Shown one piece after another: positions 151 through 28,590 of a DNA stretch of 31,623 bases. The stretch's first letter is position 1. Every line of letters starts with the position of its first letter. The translations under genes were made by a program, and so were the position numbers. The DNA lies in UHGV virus genome UHGV-0098804. One strand, 5' to 3'. This DNA is from a virus. Under the pieces are notes generated by a model. The model searched no databases and had not been told where the DNA came from. It saw only the letters and a list, made by a program, of their open reading frames with translations.

Positions 151-3100
151 ATACTTGATCTCCCGGAAGTAGATCAATGATTTCTGTATCGTGATTAACA
201 GTGCGTTTTTGTTGTATGGCTGTTGCGATATCAGCCACTTGAGAAGCTTTTTTAAATCCAAAAGATTTACCGGTTAAGCCGGATATCTTTTCAGTAAGAG
301 CCTGATCCATTCCTTTCGCTTTTTCGGAAAGCGAAGATATAGAACCAAACGAAGTAGCCAACGCAAAATCCTTTACCAGGTCCAGACTTGTTCCAGCAAG
401 GCTGGTAGCCGCGCCGCCAAATAAATTACTTGCACCACTGATTCCGCTTTCATTTATTGCGATTAACCGCTCAAGCAAACTCGATGGAGAGCCGGTATTA
501 ACATCAGCGTTCTCTGGATTAATCGGTTGTGGTTGGTTACCTGTTTTTTGTGGCTTTTTGACTGCCTGGGCATGTTGTGCAACCTCAATTGGCTGTTGTG
601 TTGCTGTCGGAACGGCATTCAAAACTGGTTGAGCTGGAGATTTTCCATTAGCATATTTTACCTTGCGACCAACACTATATTGCGAATCGCGGGCAATTAG
701 CTGACCACCATTTTCTTTCTGAATTTTATTAATCCGCGCCAATGTTTCGTCAGAGAATTGTCCCTCCCATCGACCAGTGTTTGTGTTAAATGCTCCAAGT
801 GCGTTCTTAATGAACTCATTATTAACTGCCGGATTTCCGCCTTCTTTCGTCGCAATTGCACGAACTAATTGCGTCATAACCTCTGGTTTGCTGACATCTA
901 TTTTTTCATTAGGCGATACACCAAGATATTTACTGACGTTATCAATATATTGGTTAGTATTGTTCTCATTTGGCGGTGCCCATTTTGAAATGATGCTGGA
1001 TACCGTCTGTAACTTCTGATATCCCGCTGCGGCACTGGTGCCGTTGTAATAGCTGGAAACCTGGTTTGCCAGTGCCCTGATCCCTTCTTCAGGTGTGTTA
1101 AATCGCGCAAAACGTTGTTCACCTTTTGCATTTGGCGATTCCAGCGTCGCCCCTTCCTGGTTGGCAAAAACAAGATTGCCGAGATTATTATTTCGGTAAT
1201 TGCGGTTTTTAGCGTTGCTGCCGCCAATATTCAGATCCGCTGCAATGGTGTTGTTGGCAGGTGAACTAAATTCAGTTGGAGAAGTATACCCGTGCTCACC
1301 AACTCCATCCTCGCCATTACGCCCACCTTGTAATTGTTCACCTAGAGAATGAATCGCATCGACAGTTTTTTGGGTGCCGTCTTCAACAGCTTTTTTTACT
1401 TGTTTCGTGTTTTCGTCAGTGGATAAAAATGTATCCTTAAGGCTACCAAAAACAGATTTGGTGACATCTACCGCGCCGTTAACACCACGAGCAATATCTC
1501 CGGTATCAAAATTCTGAAGTTTTTCACCTGCTCTTTCAAATCCTAGCGCAGAAATTCCTTTCCCTATCAAGTTCGTTGCGCCCGACACCAAGCCCCCCAT
1601 ATCGAGCACATTAGCTGTTGCGTAAGCCGTTTTTTGCTGTTCGGATACAGCATCATCGTCACTTAATCCAAAGGCTGCCTTTTGCGCATCTGTATCAGTG
1701 TAACCATCTATAGCGTCATATCCCGCCATAGCCAGCGATCCGATGATAGGGATAGCTCTTGCAGCTGTAGAAGCAGCTGATTTAACACCTATTTTTGCAG
1801 CACTTTTGAGGGCTACGGATTCGGTTTTTTTCTTTGCAACAGTTTCACCTGTTTTAACTGTGGCCTCTTCGGCAACAACACCTGCTGGCTTAACTGCCTT
1901 TGCTGTGTTTTTTGTTTCTTTAGCAATACCCTTAGATGCGTCGCTTGTGGTGCTGATGTCTTTGGCTTTACTAACCTTTGTTTTAACAGTCTTTGCAGCT
2001 CCGGCACCAGCTCCAGCAGCAGCGGTTCCGGCAGCGGCTTTTTCACCAACAGAAAGGGCTTTTTTCCCCAGATTGCGACCTTTCCTTTTCGGTTTGTTCC
2101 GTTTATTTTTACCAGCCTGATCGCCAATATTGATTTTATTTCTTCTGCTTGCTCGATTTCTCCAGAGATCACTTAAGCCGAACTTATTCCCAGAAGATAC
2201 TGATTTGCGTAGCTTAACTACTTCGTCGGAGACATTTTCCAGACCATCAATTATTTTGTTGTCATTGGTCTGAAGAATTTTTGTTTGCTCTTCTACTGCT
2301 TGTGCTGATTTTGTCTCAACAGCATTATTAAATGCTGTTGCAGAGGTTGCTTTTTGAGTATTAACCACCGCCGGATAAGTGATAGCTGGAGATGTCGCTT
2401 TCGAAGGTGAAGCCTCACCTTTCCCCTTTTCTACCCATTCTTTAAGAGATTCTGCTTTACCTGTGATCTCTTTAGTAATGTCGTACATGCCGCGAGCAGC
2501 CATCCACAACGGACCACCAGCGCCAACACCTGCGGCATCTGTTAAAGACTCTTCACTGGAAGACTGATTGCCATCTACCCCTATAATGGAGCCTAATTTC
2601 CGGAGGAAGCCTTCTTGTAGTTTGGCGTCGGCCTTATGTGCTTTCTGCCATTCTTTTTTTCTGGCTATATCTTCGTTGTTTTTCTGGGATACAAAGCGTC
2701 CGTTACTATCCCGAAGCGGTCCTTTTTGGCTTTGGGGGGATTGTGGTTCAAGAGGAGCAGAATTAGCGGCTACTGGCACAGAACCTTTCAACTTTTGGGC
2801 TGACTGGCGTGATGACGCAAAATGAACGCGCTCTGATGTGTTGGTTGCAACAATGAGACGTTCTTCTCCGTTGTTGATCTGCGTCCTCCCTTTTTTCATC
2901 GGAAGGCGTTTTATATATGGGTTAGCTTGGGTGTTCTTGGCATCATCAGAGACATAGGGTTCGCTTGCTATGAGTCTACGGGATAGTCTTTGACTTACTT
3001 TACCTTGATTTTCACCAAGTTGAGTTATAGACCCTCTACCAGAGAGAATGGCGTCTTTGATCTCAGCAAGAGCGTTAAGTTCGTTTGTGCTCGCCCCCTG

Positions 3101-3235
3101 AATAGCGTCAATTATTGCGATACGGTCTTTATTCTCTTTCAAAATAACCTCTCTTTTGCCAGCGGCGATCAACGTTTCCCGGCTTGAGCTTTGTATTTTT
3201 CTTCCAGGGCTTTTGACATATGGAGTGCTCGCCAT
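1..3235 (-). CDS. Large virion protein, tail tape-measure-like; ATG at 3235, 3' end lies beyond window start (partial, >1077 aa)
   Basis: Hand translation of the minus strand from ATG 3235 runs without stop to position 1. The ORF track lists no >=60-aa minus ORF starting here, consistent with an ORF lacking an in-window stop. Gly/Ala/Lys-rich low-complexity stretches, an in-frame 25-aa tandem repeat and position next to tail genes suggest tape-measure or injection protein. An internal block (FARFNTPEEGIRALANQVSSYYNG...) looks like a conserved domain I cannot name. No strong SD before 3235. Confidence 0.55.
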   Translation of the reverse strand, partial: MASTPYVKSPGRKIQSSSRETLIAAGKREVILKENKDRIAIIDAIQGASTNELNALAEIKDAILSGRGSITQLGENQGKVSQRLSRRLIASEPYVSDDAKNTQANPYIKRLPMKKGRTQINNGEERLIVATNTSERVHFASSRQSAQKLKGSVPVAANSAPLEPQSPQSQKGPLRDSNGRFVSQKNNEDIARKKEWQKAHKADAKLQEGFLRKLGSIIGVDGNQSSSEESLTDAAGVGAGGPLWMAARGMYDITKEITGKAESLKEWVEKGKGEASPSKATSPAITYPAVVNTQKATSATAFNNAVETKSAQAVEEQTKILQTNDNKIIDGLENVSDEVVKLRKSVSSGNKFGLSDLWRNRASRRNKINIGDQAGKNKRNKPKRKGRNLGKKALSVGEKAAAGTAAAGAGAGAAKTVKTKVSKAKDISTTSDASKGIAKETKNTAKAVKPAGVVAEEATVKTGETVAKKKTESVALKSAAKIGVKSAASTAARAIPIIGSLAMAGYDAIDGYTDTDAQKAAFGLSDDDAVSEQQKTAYATANVLDMGGLVSGATNLIGKGISALGFERAGEKLQNFDTGDIARGVNGAVDVTKSVFGSLKDTFLSTDENTKQVKKAVEDGTQKTVDAIHSLGEQLQGGRNGEDGVGEHGYTSPTEFSSPANNTIAADLNIGGSNAKNRNYRNNNLGNLVFANQEGATLESPNAKGEQRFARFNTPEEGIRALANQVSSYYNGTSAAAGYQKLQTVSSIISKWAPPNENNTNQYIDNVSKYLGVSPNEKIDVSKPEVMTQLVRAIATKEGGNPAVNNEFIKNALGAFNTNTGRWEGQFSDETLARINKIQKENGGQLIARDSQYSVGRKVKYANGKSPAQPVLNAVPTATQQPIEVAQHAQAVKKPQKTGNQPQPINPENADVNTGSPSSLLERLIAINESGISGASNLFGGAATSLAGTSLDLVKDFALATSFGSISSLSEKAKGMDQALTEKISGLTGKSFGFKKASQVADIATAIQQKRTVNHDTEIIDLLPGDQVSPSTPKTPQQEQALAISQAMAGFSSAAPAPKTPQQEQALAISQAMAGFSS

Positions 3236-3289
3236 TGTGGCAATTGTTCAACGTCACTAACGGGCTGATATCCATACAGAGTCAGGTTG

Positions 3290-4111
3290 TTAATAATGGT
3301 TAGCCATCCATTCAGATCTAATTGATGGGATAAACTCTCTATTGAGAAAGGGGACGTACAGTGTGGTTGTCACATCTGCACCCTCCTTAGCGTTTTTGCA
3401 ATGTTGCGGAGGCAGGATCAGTCGGCTTGAGCCTCTCTCAATAGACATTTTCAGGCCGTGGCGTAGGTCTTTTTGCATAAGCTGTATGCGAGCCACAAGC
3501 GGGGTAAATTCGGTTTCAAGCGCCATGCTTTCAATGATGTCAAAGCGTCGGTTAGCGGCCTGCGTGAAGTCCTCCGGATCGTCTTCAAGCGCCGTGCATA
3601 AAGCGAGTTCAGCAATTCGCATCCGTGCTACGCCAGCACTGTATTCGGGAGTTTTCATATCAGGAAGTGACGCTCGCATTCGTTCAAGGAGTTCCGCGCC
3701 TTTCCCGGTTAATGGTTTAAGTATCCAGTCAGTTGGTACTCCATTTACTGGTACGTTGGTTTTCACGTAAGGAGGTACAGTGAGTATTTCTACTGTTTGG
3801 GCCAGGTCGCTCAGGTTAATATCTGCATGATGCGTATTACCGCAGTGACTGCACTCATAGGAGTAGGTCATTACTGCATCGGGGCGCGAATTAACAAATA
3901 TCCACCAAAGAGCAGTTCTGCGGTCCTGAACTGTCCAGTTAGCACTGTCGTTAATTTCACCATCCTGCATAGAGTTAAGGTACTCTGTAGTCGTTGCCTC
4001 ATCTTCTGCCGGGTTCAGGTCAGAATATTTCAGCGCATCCTTCACGGTAGGGGCGTGGAACTGAATTTCTGTCTCAGGACGGGAAGGCAATGGGAATTTT
4101 GGAATGTTCAA
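3290..4111 (-). CDS. Hypothetical phage protein (273 aa), TTG start
   Basis: Track ORF; GGAGG lies 7 nt upstream of the TTG at 4111; sits between the structural block and the tape-measure-like gene. No family recognised. Confidence 0.55.
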   Translation of the reverse strand: MNIPKFPLPSRPETEIQFHAPTVKDALKYSDLNPAEDEATTTEYLNSMQDGEINDSANWTVQDRRTALWWIFVNSRPDAVMTYSYECSHCGNTHHADINLSDLAQTVEILTVPPYVKTNVPVNGVPTDWILKPLTGKGAELLERMRASLPDMKTPEYSAGVARMRIAELALCTALEDDPEDFTQAANRRFDIIESMALETEFTPLVARIQLMQKDLRHGLKMSIERGSSRLILPPQHCKNAKEGADVTTTLYVPFLNREFIPSIRSEWMANHY

Positions 4112-22604: not shown

Positions 22605-23372
22605 TCACCCCATAGATATCGAGGTTTCGGTAATAATACGTTTTGCGTCCAACTCCCATGCTGTGATCACGTCTGCAATCACACTTATCGGCGCTTGTGT
22701 GGCATAAATACGCTCTTCTCCAATTGGTGCTGAAACATCCGTAAAGCCGACTTCTTTGGCATCCTGTATCGAGCAAATCAGCGGGACCGGAACACGAACA
22801 AGGTGAGTGGTTGCTTCAAATTGTGTACCTGTCATCAGGCGAAGCCGTGCGCCCAGCGAATTACACATCAGACTCATGGTCGCTTTATCAGTTGCCATTA
22901 ACGTAACGTCATACGTCAGAATGGCCTGGGTGTATTCCAGTTCTGCTAAAGGCATTCCGGTATCCGGTTCGCAAAAACTGGCTACTTTTTTGCGGTCAAT
23001 CTGCTGATCATCGTTGATATAATTGATATCCATAGTGCGTGAGATATTGACCAGGGGGAGAGCATCCCGGTTAATGTTCTGGTTTTCAGGTTTTCTCCCT
23101 TGCCCGGCATTTGCGCGACGAACTGCTTTAAGAAACTCGATCGCATTGTCGAAACGGGCCACATAGACACGCTCTGCTGGTGGACGATTCAAGAATGACG
23201 CAAAGCGTTTTTCTTCCGGCGCGGGGGCCACCAGTAAGATATCAGAAAAGATATTGCTGATTAGCGTAGCAAACGCGTTATCCACGTTTTCAAAGCCCGT
23301 GGTCTGGAATTTCCCTGTGCGTGAGGTTTGCCATTCACCTGTTCGCGCCAGGAGGGTTTTATTTGAAGTCAT
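22605..23372 (-). CDS. Hypothetical tail/baseplate protein (255 aa)
   Basis: Track ORF in operon context; overlaps the upstream ORF by 4 bp. Confidence 0.45.
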   Translation of the reverse strand: MTSNKTLLARTGEWQTSRTGKFQTTGFENVDNAFATLISNIFSDILLVAPAPEEKRFASFLNRPPAERVYVARFDNAIEFLKAVRRANAGQGRKPENQNINRDALPLVNISRTMDINYINDDQQIDRKKVASFCEPDTGMPLAELEYTQAILTYDVTLMATDKATMSLMCNSLGARLRLMTGTQFEATTHLVRVPVPLICSIQDAKEVGFTDVSAPIGEERIYATQAPISVIADVITAWELDAKRIITETSISMG

Positions 23373-24160
23373 TCGATCACTCCGTTTTGAGTCGTATCAA
23401 AATTCCTGGCAGGTATGCAGTAGTAAAGCGAACCAACATGCTGTGTGCCGTAGCTAAAAATACGGTGCACGTACCACCAGCGGCGGGCTACGCCGTTTAC
23501 CATCTCTTCATTCCATTCAAGAATTGATCCGACGGGGACGTTATTTGCTGCAATACGCAGAATCAGAACATCATCGGTTAAGCCATCCTGCTCACCGTCT
23601 GCGTCAATCGCATGGAAAGAGTCACGCCCGTCCGGGTTATCCAGCACATAAACGATTTCAGGTTCCTGGTAAGTCAGTTCGCGCTGGTTGTTATCCAGTT
23701 CAGTGAATGACTCTTCTCCTGTTTCGTCGCTGACTACCCCATATGTGCCAACATCTGGTCGATATAAGAGAGCCTGAAACGCGTCTGGGCTGGATTCAAT
23801 AATCAGCATCCAGTCTGCGCGGATTTGGTCGTTAAAGGCTTTATGCCCGTTATAGCGTGCTTTTAGCTGTGGAGTTGGTTCTCTGCCAGCCAGGGAAGGT
23901 GGAAGTATGGCTATATCTGATTCGGCAGCATCCGGAGTAAGGCCAGCGTTGCTATCAGCAAAATTATCATGGCTATCAGCTTTGGCGGCGGGTTGCTCTT
24001 CCAGAATGCTGAATGAATCCGAACCGGTATTGCCATGTTCCGGCGCACCTCCTGCATTCGCTTCAATCGGCGCTGGCGTTTCTCTCTGCGTGCTGTCATG
24101 TTCTGACTCCTTACTTGCCAGGTTTGCATCGTCAGCAAACCATTCGTCAAAACGGCCCAT
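23369..24160 (-). CDS. Hypothetical protein with acidic N-terminal half (about 264 aa)
   Basis: Track ORF 23369..24262; GAGG lies 6 nt before the second ATG at 24160 (MGRFDEW...), preferred over the track start. Confidence 0.45.
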   Translation of the reverse strand: MGRFDEWFADDANLASKESEHDSTQRETPAPIEANAGGAPEHGNTGSDSFSILEEQPAAKADSHDNFADSNAGLTPDAAESDIAILPPSLAGREPTPQLKARYNGHKAFNDQIRADWMLIIESSPDAFQALLYRPDVGTYGVVSDETGEESFTELDNNQRELTYQEPEIVYVLDNPDGRDSFHAIDADGEQDGLTDDVLILRIAANNVPVGSILEWNEEMVNGVARRWWYVHRIFSYGTQHVGSLYYCIPARNFDTTQNGVIE

Positions 24161-24322
24161 AAGCATCCTCAAAGGTCGATCTGTCAGGTATCGAAAGGAA
24201 GATTTTCGGGAGATTGTGATTTTGGATGAAGGAGGGGGAATCCATAAAGTGCACTTGCGCACAGTGCAACAGTGCGCTATAGTTATGGCATTCGGTAATC
24301 ATCACGGAGGATCAAATGACTA

Positions 24323-24625
24323 ATGACCAAAAAAATTAACATAAAGGATTTCAGGGATGCGTGGCTTGATGATTTTTTTGAATTTTCAACACCACATAGA
24401 AAGATACCTCCTGATATTCATATGACATTGTCACGGAAGTTGGACATTATCAATGCCGCAACTACCTGTAAGGATTTAAGATCACCACCAGGTAATCGGT
24501 ATGAGGAACTGTCAGGGAAGCTAAATGGCTATTCATCAGTAAGGGTGAATAAGCAATATAGGTTAATTTTTAAGTGGGTTAACGGAAAGGCCGAGGACTT
24601 GTATCTCGACCCTCACAAATACTAA
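24323..24625 (+). CDS. higB: HigB-like toxin (RelE/ParE superfamily, plasmid-killer type)
   Basis: C-terminal LRSPPGNRYEELSGKLNGYSSVRVNKQYRLIFKW...DLYLDPHKY matches the recalled HigB toxin pattern (PPGNRLE...SIRIN.QWRICF...DYH); toxin-first gene order; GGAGG at 24305. Confidence 0.75.
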   Translation: MTKKINIKDFRDAWLDDFFEFSTPHRKIPPDIHMTLSRKLDIINAATTCKDLRSPPGNRYEELSGKLNGYSSVRVNKQYRLIFKWVNGKAEDLYLDPHKY

Positions 24626-24695
24626 AACAGATACCCGGTTACGGACCGGGTTCTGACCAGAGTCCACTTAATACGCACGCTAGTAAGGGCAAAAA

Positions 24696-25034
24696 ATGAA
24701 ACAGGCAACCAGAAAACCGACGACCGTAGGTGATATCCTTCTGTACGAATACCTGGAGCCGTTAGAGCTGAAGATCAACGAGTTAGCAGAAATACTTCAT
24801 GTTCATCGTAACACCGTAAGTGCTCTTGTTAATAATAATCGTAAGCTAACGATGGATATGGCATATCGCCTGGCAAAAGCATTCGATACTTCTGTAGATT
24901 TTTGGATTAATCTTCAGACCGCAGTAGATCTGTGGGAAGTCGAAAATGATATGCGCGTTCAGGAAGAGTTAAGTCGTATCAATACTGCTGAAAAATTTAT
25001 TTCTCAGCGGAACCTGAATAAAAAAGCAGCCTGA
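24696..25034 (+). CDS. higA: HigA-like antitoxin (XRE-type HTH)
   Basis: HTH region LAEILHVHRNTVSALVNNNRKLTMDMAYRLAKAFDTSVDFWINLQTAVDLW matches the HigA antidote pattern; immediately downstream of higB. Confidence 0.8.
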   Translation: MKQATRKPTTVGDILLYEYLEPLELKINELAEILHVHRNTVSALVNNNRKLTMDMAYRLAKAFDTSVDFWINLQTAVDLWEVENDMRVQEELSRINTAEKFISQRNLNKKAA

Positions 25035-25055
25035 TATAGTAAAATACATACAAAA

Positions 25056-25084
25056 AGCCCACTTAGCAAGTGGGCTTTCCTTTG
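25056..25084 (+). terminator. Rho-independent terminator after higA
   Basis: agcccactt agc aagtgggct followed by ttcctttg. Confidence 0.55.
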
Positions 25085-25090
25085 TAATTA

Positions 25091-25291
25091 ATGAACATTA
25101 AACCTATCCGTACAGAACAAGATTATGAGGCCGCACTGCGTGCGGTCGAACCGATGTTCGATAACGAACCGGAAATGAATACTCCGGAAGGTGATTTCTT
25201 TGAGGTTATGAGTCTTCTCATTGAGGAGTACGAGAAGAAACATTACCCAATTCAGCCACCATCACCTGTTGAATCTTTTAACTATCCATAA
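25091..25291 (+). CDS. Orphan antitoxin-like N-terminal domain ORF (66 aa, no HTH): possible remnant of a third TA module
   Basis: IRTEQDYEAALRAVEPMFDNEPEMNTPEGDFFEVMSLLIEEYEKKHYPI resembles the N-terminal non-HTH domain of E. coli K-12-type HigA antitoxins (recalled). Starts right after a terminator with no SD; the usual C-terminal HTH is absent and an AT-rich gene follows. Confidence 0.4.
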   Translation: MNIKPIRTEQDYEAALRAVEPMFDNEPEMNTPEGDFFEVMSLLIEEYEKKHYPIQPPSPVESFNYP

Positions 25292-25312
25292 TAAAAGTAA
25301 TCAGGATAAGCT

Positions 25313-26041
25313 ATGATGTCAGAAAAAGTTACAGATAATCCGTCTATAAATGAAACAGAACTAAAATCATTTTCTGAAATAATAAAAGATAAAATATTTA
25401 ACAAGGTTTTTGCATATGTTGTCATTTCTTTTCTAATTTTTAACTGGAAGGATATTTTAATTATATTAAAGTCAAAGGACGACATCCTATATACATTATC
25501 TATTGTTTTTGTTGGTGGTAATGTCCCGTTCTTTGATAATTGGATTGTATCCCCGTGGGTTTATCACGTTGTAATCCCATTTGTTTATGGAGTATTTGCA
25601 TCTGTGTTAGCTCCTATTCTCACACTGAAGATATCTAAGCTAACAAGTAAATTATACACTGAAATAAGATATTTGGATGAAGTTGCTGATTATGATAAAA
25701 GAATAGAATTGCAAAGAAAGAAAACAAAGTTAAATCAAGCAACCAATGACGCTAAATATTCAAAACAAATCTTAGATGAAAATGAAAATAAACTTAATGA
25801 CCTAGCTAAGAAACAGCGAGAAATTTGTGGCGCGATAAAACTATTGCATACTGATGTTGGCAGTATTATTGAGCTATATAAAAATAAGGGGGTTAGCATT
25901 GAATCTCCGCAAGATTTATGTGATTTTATAGTCGCTATAAAAAGCACATCATTCTATAATGATGACAAGCATTTTAATAAATTGGTGTCTGATATTTCCA
26001 GTTTGTTTGATAATACTGGAATTGATCTTTCAAAAAAATGA
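25313..26041 (+). CDS. AT-rich accessory gene: multi-pass membrane N-terminus plus C-terminal coiled coil (242 aa), function unknown
   Basis: Track ORF with AGGA SD. Composition is visibly far more AT-rich than the flanks. Hydrophobic segments (FAYVVISFLIFNW; LSIVFVGGNVPFF; VVIPFVYGVFASVLAPILTL) then a charged heptad-like region. Confidence 0.6.
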   Translation: MMSEKVTDNPSINETELKSFSEIIKDKIFNKVFAYVVISFLIFNWKDILIILKSKDDILYTLSIVFVGGNVPFFDNWIVSPWVYHVVIPFVYGVFASVLAPILTLKISKLTSKLYTEIRYLDEVADYDKRIELQRKKTKLNQATNDAKYSKQILDENENKLNDLAKKQREICGAIKLLHTDVGSIIELYKNKGVSIESPQDLCDFIVAIKSTSFYNDDKHFNKLVSDISSLFDNTGIDLSKK

Positions 26042-26074
26042 AAGCCCAGCATAAACTACTAGGCTATGTGTGGT

Positions 26075-27268
26075 TTATGCTTTTTTCACGTACTCTATAA
26101 ACATCTTCTCAGCCTGTTCTTGTGGCGTTCCAGCCATGACAAGCGCATCAATGAACGCCTGCTTCTTCAGTGCGAACTGATCGGCAAGGCGTTGCTGAAG
26201 TTCCTTATTTTTCTGTTTCTCACGTTGCAAGGCCGCTTCTTTTGCAGCCGCCCGTTTTTTCTGTGCGTCTGACAACTTTCTGGCCCTGGTCAATTGGTCA
26301 CGTAGCTTGTCGATCTTGCCGTTGTCCTTTGCCAGTTTTGTACTTAAAGCTGCCTGGCGCTTCTGATAGAGCCTCCATTCGCGCTTGGCAGCGTCAACGT
26401 TTGTTTTACTGTTGCGATTGCGATTAAACTCCCTCTCGTCTTCTTTTGAGAAGTGTTTGGTTGTACGGCGGCGATCGTCACCAAATGCAATTTGCGTTGC
26501 GGCCTTTTGTAACGCACGAGCAATACTCATTTGCCAACTAGCGGACTGTAACCGCGTCATTGAGTGGATCACGTGTTTACAGGCGACGCCTTGTAGCTTA
26601 GGGTTACGAACTTTTGGATAGGCGTATTCTTTTGGCGGTGCCAGGGCAAAGTTACCCGCAGTAGCGATGTAACGATACCAGTATTGATGACGACCACAGT
26701 CACAATCGAAAGACACCCGCCCGGCGCACAGTGATTTAGTGATTTTCAGAGCTGATTTATCGTCTTCTGCGATGTCATCGACCATCTGATCCCATTCTTC
26801 AAAGCGTATCCGGACGATATGGTGCTGGTGGACGGATATATCCGATGCTTCTACGCGGATATTAATCACGTTGTGGCGAAGAGATACAGGTGTAGCTCTT
26901 TTGATACCAGATCCGTCATCCACGGCGTTATTTGCACGCTTAATATCGATTGCCTGGCTGGATGCCACCAGCTGGGCGTATGTGATGCCAGCCGTCTTGC
27001 TGTCATATTTTTCGCGTGTTTTACTCCGTAGCTTTTCGAAACCTTTCAGGTCGTCTCGCGTGAAGAACGTGCCGCCTTTTTTCTTCCCTAACTTGAGAAT
27101 ATCTTCGGCGGATTTGTTCCTCAGTCTACCTGGCGTCAGCGTCCGGTGAGCTTGTCGGCGCTTACGGGTTTGTTCTTTCCTGATAAGGTCGAATAAACGC
27201 GTGAAGTCCTTAGAGGACAGGCCGTCAGTGATATAGCGCCCGTCCTGGTTTTTCAGGAAATCAGGCAT
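26075..27268 (-). CDS. SWIM-zinc-finger-like protein with Lys/Arg/Glu-rich coiled-coil C-terminus (397 aa), function unknown
   Basis: Track ORF; GGAG SD; FDCDCGRHQYWY...CKHVIH fits a CxC...CxH SWIM-type finger; start overlaps the upstream ORF stop by 8 bp (ATGCCTGA). Confidence 0.6.
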   Translation of the reverse strand: MPDFLKNQDGRYITDGLSSKDFTRLFDLIRKEQTRKRRQAHRTLTPGRLRNKSAEDILKLGKKKGGTFFTRDDLKGFEKLRSKTREKYDSKTAGITYAQLVASSQAIDIKRANNAVDDGSGIKRATPVSLRHNVINIRVEASDISVHQHHIVRIRFEEWDQMVDDIAEDDKSALKITKSLCAGRVSFDCDCGRHQYWYRYIATAGNFALAPPKEYAYPKVRNPKLQGVACKHVIHSMTRLQSASWQMSIARALQKAATQIAFGDDRRRTTKHFSKEDEREFNRNRNSKTNVDAAKREWRLYQKRQAALSTKLAKDNGKIDKLRDQLTRARKLSDAQKKRAAAKEAALQREKQKNKELQQRLADQFALKKQAFIDALVMAGTPQEQAEKMFIEYVKKA

Positions 27269-27590
27269 TTTCTATCTCCGGTTCCGCGCTTGCGTAATCA
27301 CGGATCTTGTTCCTCAGCCATGCCACATCAGGAAGAGTTAACGTGGTCCCTGCGGGCATTTCTTCCATCTCTGACTCATGGCCCACCAGCACCCGGAATA
27401 CCCAGCGCAAATCTGCATTGCCATACGCCCTGTAGGCTGCAAGGTCTGAACGATATACTTCATCAATCTTTATCGTGTACTGGAAATTATCAGAGTGATA
27501 CTCCGATACCCGCTTAATCATTTCCTGGTGAAACAGCGCACGAAAAATATCGTCTTCAATGTACCTATCGTCGAGTCTGCTATAGCCCAT
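27261..27590 (-). CDS. Hypothetical protein (109 aa) translationally coupled to the SWIM-like gene
   Basis: Track ORF; GAGGGG SD about 9 nt upstream of the ATG; no family recognised. Confidence 0.5.
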   Translation of the reverse strand: MGYSRLDDRYIEDDIFRALFHQEMIKRVSEYHSDNFQYTIKIDEVYRSDLAAYRAYGNADLRWVFRVLVGHESEMEEMPAGTTLTLPDVAWLRNKIRDYASAEPEIENA

Positions 27591-27651
27591 AACAAAGCCC
27601 CTCAGTCATAACCTGGGGAAAACTGTATGCAGGGTGTGAAATGCGAGAAAG

Positions 27652-27682: not shown

Positions 27683-27976
27683 TTATGCGTGGAAAAATAA
27701 TGGACGGATGTTTGGGCGAGTGGTTTGCGAAGCAACCCAAAGCTCATACTGGGATTGCATACCGGTCCACATTTCGGCACTGGTTCCAAGAGCGGACTCC
27801 AGACGAAGTGCCATATCAGCAGATATACCTGCTTTTTCATTCAGAATTCGGGAAAGCGCCGTGCGAGTAATGCCTAATGCCGCAGCGGCGTCTGTGACTG
27901 ACATGTCTCCCAAATATTCACGAAGAACCGCGCCTGGATGCGCGGGATTATGCATACGACTCATAGTGTTCCTCAA
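27683..27976 (-). CDS. higA: HigA-like antitoxin (second copy, XRE HTH)
   Basis: [18 protein letters not shown]...[38 protein letters not shown] is the canonical HigA pattern; 4-bp overlap with the upstream toxin gene. Confidence 0.8.
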
Positions 27977-28254
27977 TGATAATCCTGATAGTCAACTAGA
28001 ATTGCGTCTTCTCCTTCAAATCGGAAGGTAAGTCGCCAGTTACCGTTTACCGATATTGCCCAGTGACCTTTAAGGTCCGCCCCCTTTAGAGGGTGCAATT
28101 CCCATCCAGGCGCAGACATATCGTCCGGGCGTTTAGCTGTATTAAGCGCAGTCAATTGAATGCGTAGCTTAACCGCATGTTTGGCCTGAATGCCTGCGGT
28201 TGAACCTGTCTTGAAAAAGCGTTCAAGCCCTTTATGGCGAAATGACTTAATCAA
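27973..28254 (-). CDS. higB: HigB/RelE-like toxin (second copy); probable TTG start giving [14 protein letters not shown]...
   Basis: [13 protein letters not shown]...[43 protein letters not shown] matches the HigB/RelE toxin pattern. Track ATG at 28317 adds 21 atypical residues; a TTG at 28254 with GGA upstream restores the conserved N-terminus. Start uncertain. Confidence 0.7.
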
Positions 28255-28590
28255 AATAATTCCATTCGTGCGTGCAACCTGTGTATATACGCTACACGCA
28301 GAAAGAGTAAAATGCAAGCACTATCCGTATAGACAGAGTTTTTTCGCCACCCTGGAATTTATTGACTGTCAACAAGTGACTTTCATTAATCTTAAGGCGT
28401 GGACCAGCTCGATAGTGAGCTGGGTGTTATTTACCGATCGAATGGATTCGAAAAGATGAATATTTTTAATAAGCTGATTGATTTATTGAATAAATTCATT
28501 AGTGCTTCTTTAACTCAGCAGGTATCCACGTCAGTGTTTTTGTTACTCTTCTACCTGGTATTGAGGGAGTTAACAAAGCTACTAATGTGA

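Follow-up and report, generated by a model that had tools for sequence, protein, structure and literature searches.

A toxin-less, truncated higA gene in a cargo slot of a D6-like phage-plasmid is probably a relic of a toxin-antitoxin module

The sequence analysed here (the window) is the 31,623-nt viral genome UHGV-0098804, which by homology is a D6-like, P1-type phage-plasmid. Escherichia phage D6, a P1-like plasmid prophage, shared 89% identity with the region as a whole (99% over 23001-25272 and 89% over 25382-27650), and the window was 100% identical over 1011 nt to several ~92-kb E. coli plasmids. Between the counterparts of the P1 tail genes 7 and 25, at a site where variable cargo separates two blocks of tail genes, lies an open reading frame (ORF) of 66 codons with an ATG start and a TAA stop. 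It is preceded by a HigB-like toxin gene, its cognate higA and a terminator, and is followed by an AT-rich gene, here called gene X (Table 1).

Table 1. Features at and around the 66-codon ORF (positions in the window)
Feature	Coordinates	Strand	Basis
861-bp PF05015-type higBA cassette	24223..25083	+	Breaks in backbone homology
HigB-like RelE/ParE-family toxin, 100 aa	24323..24625	+	PF05015, E 4e-35; PGAP: type II TA RelE/ParE family toxin
Cognate HigA antitoxin, 112 aa, with HTH	24696..25034	+	TIGR02607 antidote_HigA, E 8e-30; HTH_3, E 7e-11
Bidirectional intrinsic terminator closing the incoming cassette	25054..25078	both	Terminator scan and RNA fold
Truncated E. coli-type higA, D6 orf72 homologue	25091..25291	+	Homology; PGAP pseudogene note
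Lineage-specific 109 bp: end and stop of the truncated higA, Shine-Dalgarno (SD) sequence (AGGA), first 23 codons of gene X	25273..25381	+	Ends of BLAST blocks
AT-rich hypervariable gene X, 242 aa; 5´ border is the right junction	25313..26041	+	phrog_8191

Since dozens of spurious ORFs of 30-140 aa are present in the same 5.5 kb, the length of the 66-codon ORF is not significant by itself, and its coding origin rests on homology. Searches of Pfam and NCBIfam with the 66-aa product gave no match, nor did phmmer with the fragment alone against the PDB. In PADLOC the product matched the profile PD-Lambda-2_B at positions 1-65 (E 2.5e-16), it also matched PHROG 1373, ´transcriptional regulator´ (E 8e-19), and phrog_10398, of unknown function, is the 66-position PHROGs family for this ORF. 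The closest point of reference is orf72 of phage D6, whose 119-aa product comprises an N-terminal domain and an Xre-type helix-turn-helix (HTH; Pfam HTH_3, residues 63-115). The ORF was 91% identical to orf72 over residues 1-65, but it tracks that protein only to about residue 61 and then runs into an unrelated tail of five codons, SFNYP, and the stop. The entire C-terminal HTH is missing. Since truncation at about residue 61 and the start of the HTH at residue 63 nearly coincide, the break falls almost exactly on the domain boundary and leaves a complete N-domain.

Residues 6-112 of full-length orf72 matched the HigA chains of E. coli and Shigella in HigBA crystal structures (5IFG_B, 5YCL_A; E 8e-8), and a family profile matched E. 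coli HigA in the PDB with E 1e-4. An AF2 model of the 66-aa fragment (pLDDT 87) was predicted to form two long helices; the top PDB matches of this model in Foldseek were the HigA chains 6KML_B and 5IFG_D, with E values that are non-significant for so small a fold. The original prediction that the ORF corresponds only to the N-terminal domain of an E. coli-type HigA is therefore correct, with the link running via the full-length homologue or the profile. The HigA proteins of E. coli K-12 and Shigella (5IFG, 6KML, 5YCL) combine an N-terminal helical domain, whose homologue is present in the ORF, with an HTH at the C-terminus (PMC7984235), and have a PF09907 HigB as partner. The fragment, which belongs to this family through its full-length homologue, differs from K-12 HigA in sharing only ~27% identity, in lacking the K-12 N-terminal extension and in having neither the HTH nor the toxin. 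A split or relocated gene was considered and rejected, as no HTH fragment and no PF09907 toxin turned up in searches of the rest of the window. The identical plasmid NZ_CP022228.3 carries a PGAP pseudogene at this position, described as ´helix-turn-helix domain-containing protein; incomplete; missing C-terminus´.

Related plasmids reveal what once occupied the site. The 66 codons of the window stand against 119 at the same position in D6 and seven other loci. In three of these (L004, L005 and L008), a gene for a 100-aa PF09907 HigB (E 3e-34) precedes the full-length higA at a distance of 4 nt, with a GGAG sequence 8 nt before the higA ATG, within the 3´ end of the toxin gene. The same pair was found in L006, in an unrelated phage-plasmid context, and the two genes therefore constitute a mobile module. 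At the locus in the window, the cognate PF09907 higB is missing from its place directly upstream, which is taken up by the PF05015 toxin, the TIGR02607 HigA and the terminator. Alignment to full-length homologues and a search for the partner in related elements, as originally proposed, thus found the HTH gone from the window and the toxin gene retained, directly upstream and translationally coupled, in L004, L005, L006 and L008. These siblings bear out the suggestion of gene turnover at a former toxin-antitoxin module, with the ORF as its footprint.

The left border of the fragment is sharply defined. The backbone of L004, L005 and L008 is homologous to the window as far as 24222 and then again from 25084, ~7-8 nt before the ATG of the fragment, and the 861 bp between these points stand for 383 bp of ancestral promoter and higB. 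All plasmids with orphan or truncated higA begin to match the L004 query at position 384, and this shared left junction points to one event. Behind the same new cassette, D6, L007, L009 and L010 carry a full-length orphan higA. D6 orf72 (ASR76362.1 / YP_009914749.1, annotated ´HigA family addiction module anti-toxin´ or ´transcriptional regulator´) is the orthologue at the same position: its first ~61 codons are identical to those of the fragment save for E55Q and I60V, it has the same cassette and terminator upstream, and it likewise lacks an SD sequence. It differs from the fragment in retaining all 119 codons, including the HTH, and its own terminator. We also noted a single-base feature of the cassette in the window, a G at 24249 where 13/13 relatives compared have an A. 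This is the sole difference from NZ_CP022228.3 over 24201-26100 and lies in a palindrome-rich stretch upstream of the PF05015 higB, probably the operator/promoter.

With the replacement of the upstream 383 bp, the promoter, toxin gene and ribosome-binding site that would have served the ancestral higA were replaced as well. The terminator that closes the cassette is a strong hairpin with 11 bp in its stem (dG -17.9 kcal/mol, z -4.27). It scored on either strand, and 12 nt separate it from the ATG of the fragment. These 12 nt, CCTTTGTAATTA, contain no purine-rich SD sequence, as opposed to the GGAG found 8 nt ahead of the higA ATG in L004. The description of the ORF as beginning directly after the higA terminator without an SD sequence is thus accurate. 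The companion statement that it has no promoter agrees with a consensus scan of the + strand over 24836-25440, which predicted none, although such scans are weak evidence. When 24000-26500 was searched against Rfam by E value, all matches were below threshold and fell on the terminator hairpin. One motif absent from the output of the promoter scan is TGATATAGT at 25032-25040, which resembles a TGnTATAGT extended -10 element; it overlaps the higA stop codon and is directed into the terminator, 14 nt downstream.

The right border was defined by BLAST blocks against D6 and all full-length relatives, which ended at 25272 (about codon 61) and resumed at 25382, inside gene X. The 109 bp in between replace 309 bp of D6 (L001 4074-4382). 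Relative to D6, the window has lost codons 62-119 with the whole HTH, the terminator after orf72 (L001 4255-4275), the spacer between the two genes and the initial codons of the D6-type gene X. When the 62 nt after the breakpoint (25269-25330) were aligned locally with the replaced D6 segment, 336/500 shuffles reached the same score, and the two show no significant similarity. Distant blastn of the 109-bp segment against PLSDB found it only in plasmids with the junction (71 records) and detected no pre-deletion ancestor; the change may have been a simple deletion in an unsampled ancestor or a recombinational replacement. The right junction was always coupled to one 5´ variant of gene X, and this pattern points to a single event. 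The coupling also implies that the truncation involved a rearrangement at the 5´ border of gene X and not the arrival of the gene.

Gene X itself is AT-rich, as originally noted, with 25-34% GC compared with ~50% in the flanking tail genes. Its product has three predicted hydrophobic (membrane) helices followed by a coiled-coil half and matched phrog_8191, a family of unknown function; searches of Pfam, NCBIfam and PADLOC gave no match. Among D6-like plasmids, the gene X alleles share 37-57% amino acid identity and have differing N-termini. Within the lineage carrying the truncated higA, the 729-nt gene has ~22 nonsynonymous and 14 synonymous sites and one in-frame 12-nt deletion, and it is intact throughout, all changes being in frame. 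The polymorphism of the neighbouring higB and higA is far lower, with 7 sites in 642 nt. Gene X thus has the appearance of a rapidly evolving cargo gene for a membrane protein, with a possible role in exclusion or defence. One of the two original suggestions was that insertion of this gene had disrupted the former module. That part did not hold as stated, since a gene X allele follows full-length higA in D6, L004, L007, L008 and L009, while L005 and L010 have no gene X; coexistence of gene X with an intact orf72 means that its insertion alone did not truncate higA.

The relation between the fragment and gene X raises the question of whether the DNA, rather than the peptide, is what matters, with transcription of gene X running through it as a leader or starting from it as a promoter region. 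The deletion took away, along with the old 5´ region of gene X, the terminator found between orf72 and gene X in D6, and no promoter was predicted between the terminator upstream of the fragment and the start of gene X, so transcription may cross the fragment. Throughout the lineage gene X continues to evolve without being disrupted, always behind this junction, which would fit such a role. However, no promoter-like site was found on the + strand within 25091-25312 and no Rfam family came near threshold there, and one plasmid that keeps gene X tolerates an IS3 insertion in the segment. As the argument also rests on absence of evidence for another promoter, we regard a leader function as very unlikely.

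We favor the interpretation that the ORF is a non-functional relic, or pseudogene, of an E. coli K-12-type higA (probability about 0.85). As the sequences show, the ancestral unit, still extant in siblings, consisted of a promoter, a PF09907 higB, a 4-nt spacer, a 119-aa higA with N-domain and Xre HTH, and a terminator. In one step, a cassette of PF05015 higB, TIGR02607 higA and terminator displaced the promoter, the toxin gene and the SD sequence, leaving a full-length orphan higA as in D6. In another, in the lineage of the window, 309 bp were swapped for 109 bp, with loss of HTH codons 62-119, the gene´s own terminator and the first codons of the D6-type gene X. We infer this order of events, in which loss of the toxin came first and would have made the antitoxin dispensable and free to decay. 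Given the strong terminator directly upstream and the lack of an SD sequence, the remnant is probably not usefully translated.

The truncated form is common. The junction of the window was found in 71 PLSDB records, where it is the majority allele (~71/112 records). Of 95 complete E. coli genomes in which the locus is present, 50 have the junction. The exact 66-aa product occurred in at least 1000 contigs (2076 index blocks), and its gene context was the same in 10/10 places inspected. The truncation is thus apparently one event inherited by a very successful lineage, and the high frequency of the relic would reflect hitch-hiking on that plasmid lineage and not selection on the ORF. Nothing other than the abrupt junction speaks for a collapsed or misjoined assembly of a full-length gene. 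Such an artefact, to which we give next to no weight, is excluded by the recurrence of the junction in finished assemblies from independent projects, among them the complete plasmids and genomes counted above.

Variants of the relic were examined for signs of constraint. In one plasmid that is otherwise of the window type and keeps gene X (L012, NZ_CP134379.1), an IS3-family element (2619-3860) lies inside the relic, ~106 nt past the ATG, and one frameshift (P0094) was found; both kinds of disruption are rare among the > 2000 occurrences. The substitutions E20K, P21A, P27L and D11Y affect residues that are invariant in the eight aligned sequences, seven of them full-length. For the full-length higA alleles, pN/pS was ~0.03-0.07, indicative of strong purifying selection. 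These values do not bear on the orphan state: paired and orphan alleles are near-identical (a single synonymous difference separates higA of L005 and L010), and the divergence measured predates orphaning. Across 13 loci of the truncated lineage, the relic had two nonsynonymous changes (E20K and S58L) and one synonymous change, compared with one nonsynonymous and six synonymous changes in the adjacent intact higB and higA. As 10/13 of these loci were chosen by exact protein identity, nonsynonymous changes in the relic are hidden in this comparison, and a Fisher calculation on the counts gave ~0.18, with too few sites for adequate power. The underpowered comparison leans toward relaxed constraint on the relic.

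A complete N-domain could nonetheless have kept an activity of its own. The fragment might serve as a mini-antitoxin without a DNA-binding domain that, expressed at a low level, sequesters the PF09907 HigB of competing D6-like plasmids or of chromosomes and thereby provides anti-addiction or cross-immunity. The N-domain is confidently modelled as a helical hairpin like that of HigA in the HigBA complex, and its identity to the N-domains of sibling alleles that are paired with HigB amounts to 89-91% overall, rising to 95-98% for residues 1-61. E. coli HigA reportedly clamps HigB as a C-shaped molecule, with both of its halves (Yang et al., 2016; 5IFG), and an N-domain alone may therefore bind poorly. 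A cognate toxin does circulate, with the intact pair kept in 21 PLSDB records and relatives of ~81% nucleotide identity on the chromosome in 151/5426 complete E. coli genomes, and the truncated allele is very frequent. Orphan antitoxins have moreover been proposed as anti-addiction modules (PMC7354431). Weighed against these points are the missing SD sequence, the position of the ATG 12 nt past a strong terminator, the existence of nonsynonymous, frameshift and IS-disrupted variants, and the fact that one event and one context account for all copies. In other genomes examined, N-domain-only forms were present only where the toxin was gone. Taken together, we consider a mini-antitoxin function quite unlikely.

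Small antitoxins of this general shape do exist. PaaA2-type antitoxins naturally lack a DNA-binding domain; the gene for PaaA2 lies beside that of its toxin, ParE2, has normal expression signals and has been conserved in this form. As a small helical toxin-binding polypeptide, PaaA2 would be a functional analogy for a mini-antitoxin, whereas the ORF in the window has neither a toxin nor an SD sequence and appears to have arisen by one recent truncation. The match to PD-Lambda-2_B likewise reflects only a shared N-terminal module. Component B of the PD-lambda-2 defence system is a HigA-like Xre domain fused to a C-terminal peptidase and is flanked by the HigB-like component A and by component C (Vassallo et al., 2022; PMC9519451). 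The fragment covers 1-65 of the 402 profile positions and full-length orf72 covers 1-119 (E 4e-43). Unlike PD-lambda-2, the relic has no peptidase domain, the A and C partners are missing and its neighbours are unrelated.

It had also been proposed that the ORF could be a standalone regulatory fragment. Among 1.84 billion representatives searched, 3198 clusters matched the N-domain; in the best 150 of these 3198 matches, the domain was typically N-terminal in proteins of ~100-200 aa, with scattered fragments in addition. The other N-domain-only homologues end at different residues and have unrelated tails, the SFNYP end being found only in the identical allele, and those examined were eroded relics without an intact toxin. 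Among the homologues searched, none was a conserved standalone small protein, for which lengths and ends would have to agree across independent lineages and contexts, and the proposal was not borne out. Two of the short forms illustrate how varied such remnants are. In Photorhabdus (L025, 870-1145), the last ~25 residues of a HigB toxin are fused in frame upstream of a 66-aa fragment, both genes being eroded. On another enterobacterial chromosome (L028-L031), a 56-aa N-domain fragment stands alone in the ybaB-recR spacer.

Many orphan antitoxins are remnants of degraded canonical systems (PMC7354431), and the relic follows the same pattern as orphan antitoxins of eroded type II loci, with the Photorhabdus and ybaB-recR fragments as parallels. 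It is an ordinary kind of event, and its status as a relic is already known at the level of annotation, as a RefSeq PGAP pseudogene. What sets it apart from other orphan antitoxins is that the intact pair, the full-length orphan and the truncated orphan are all extant in sibling plasmids, so that the path of decay can be read directly. The stepwise reading is the added value of the analysis. The locus offers a clean example of turnover of toxin-antitoxin cargo in a phage-plasmid hot spot, of little importance in itself, and the ORF should stay annotated as a pseudogene and not as a HigA antitoxin or transcriptional regulator, as it is in several sources. Were the fragment able to neutralize the HigB of siblings, decay products of antitoxins would be linked to competition between related plasmids. 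A decoy created by truncation would make its carrier immune to post-segregational killing by rival plasmids or chromosomal higBA modules, which might account in part for the truncated lineage being more common than any other D6-like type.

Three further observations concern the region and the relatives of the relic. At 27683-28317, on the - strand and just past the homologues of genes 25 and 26, the window carries a second pair consisting of a PF05015 HigB-like toxin and an HTH HigA; at this site phage D6 has two tiny ORFs, and the pair is present in some siblings and not in others. The tail-gene region thus holds two separate cargo slots for toxin-antitoxin genes. A separate internal deletion of higA was seen in L011 (NZ_MK356558.1, ~2500-2730), where about codon 30 runs directly into the D6-type spacer that precedes gene X; this record has many small differences and a fragmented annotation, and the quality of its assembly is doubtful. 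Finally, the full-length higA alleles (L001 and L004-L010) are mosaics in which the N-domain and HTH halves group differently: the N-terminal half of the D6 gene resembles those of L009 and L007, and its HTH half resembles those of L005 and L010. These groupings indicate that recombination within the full-length gene has probably been frequent.
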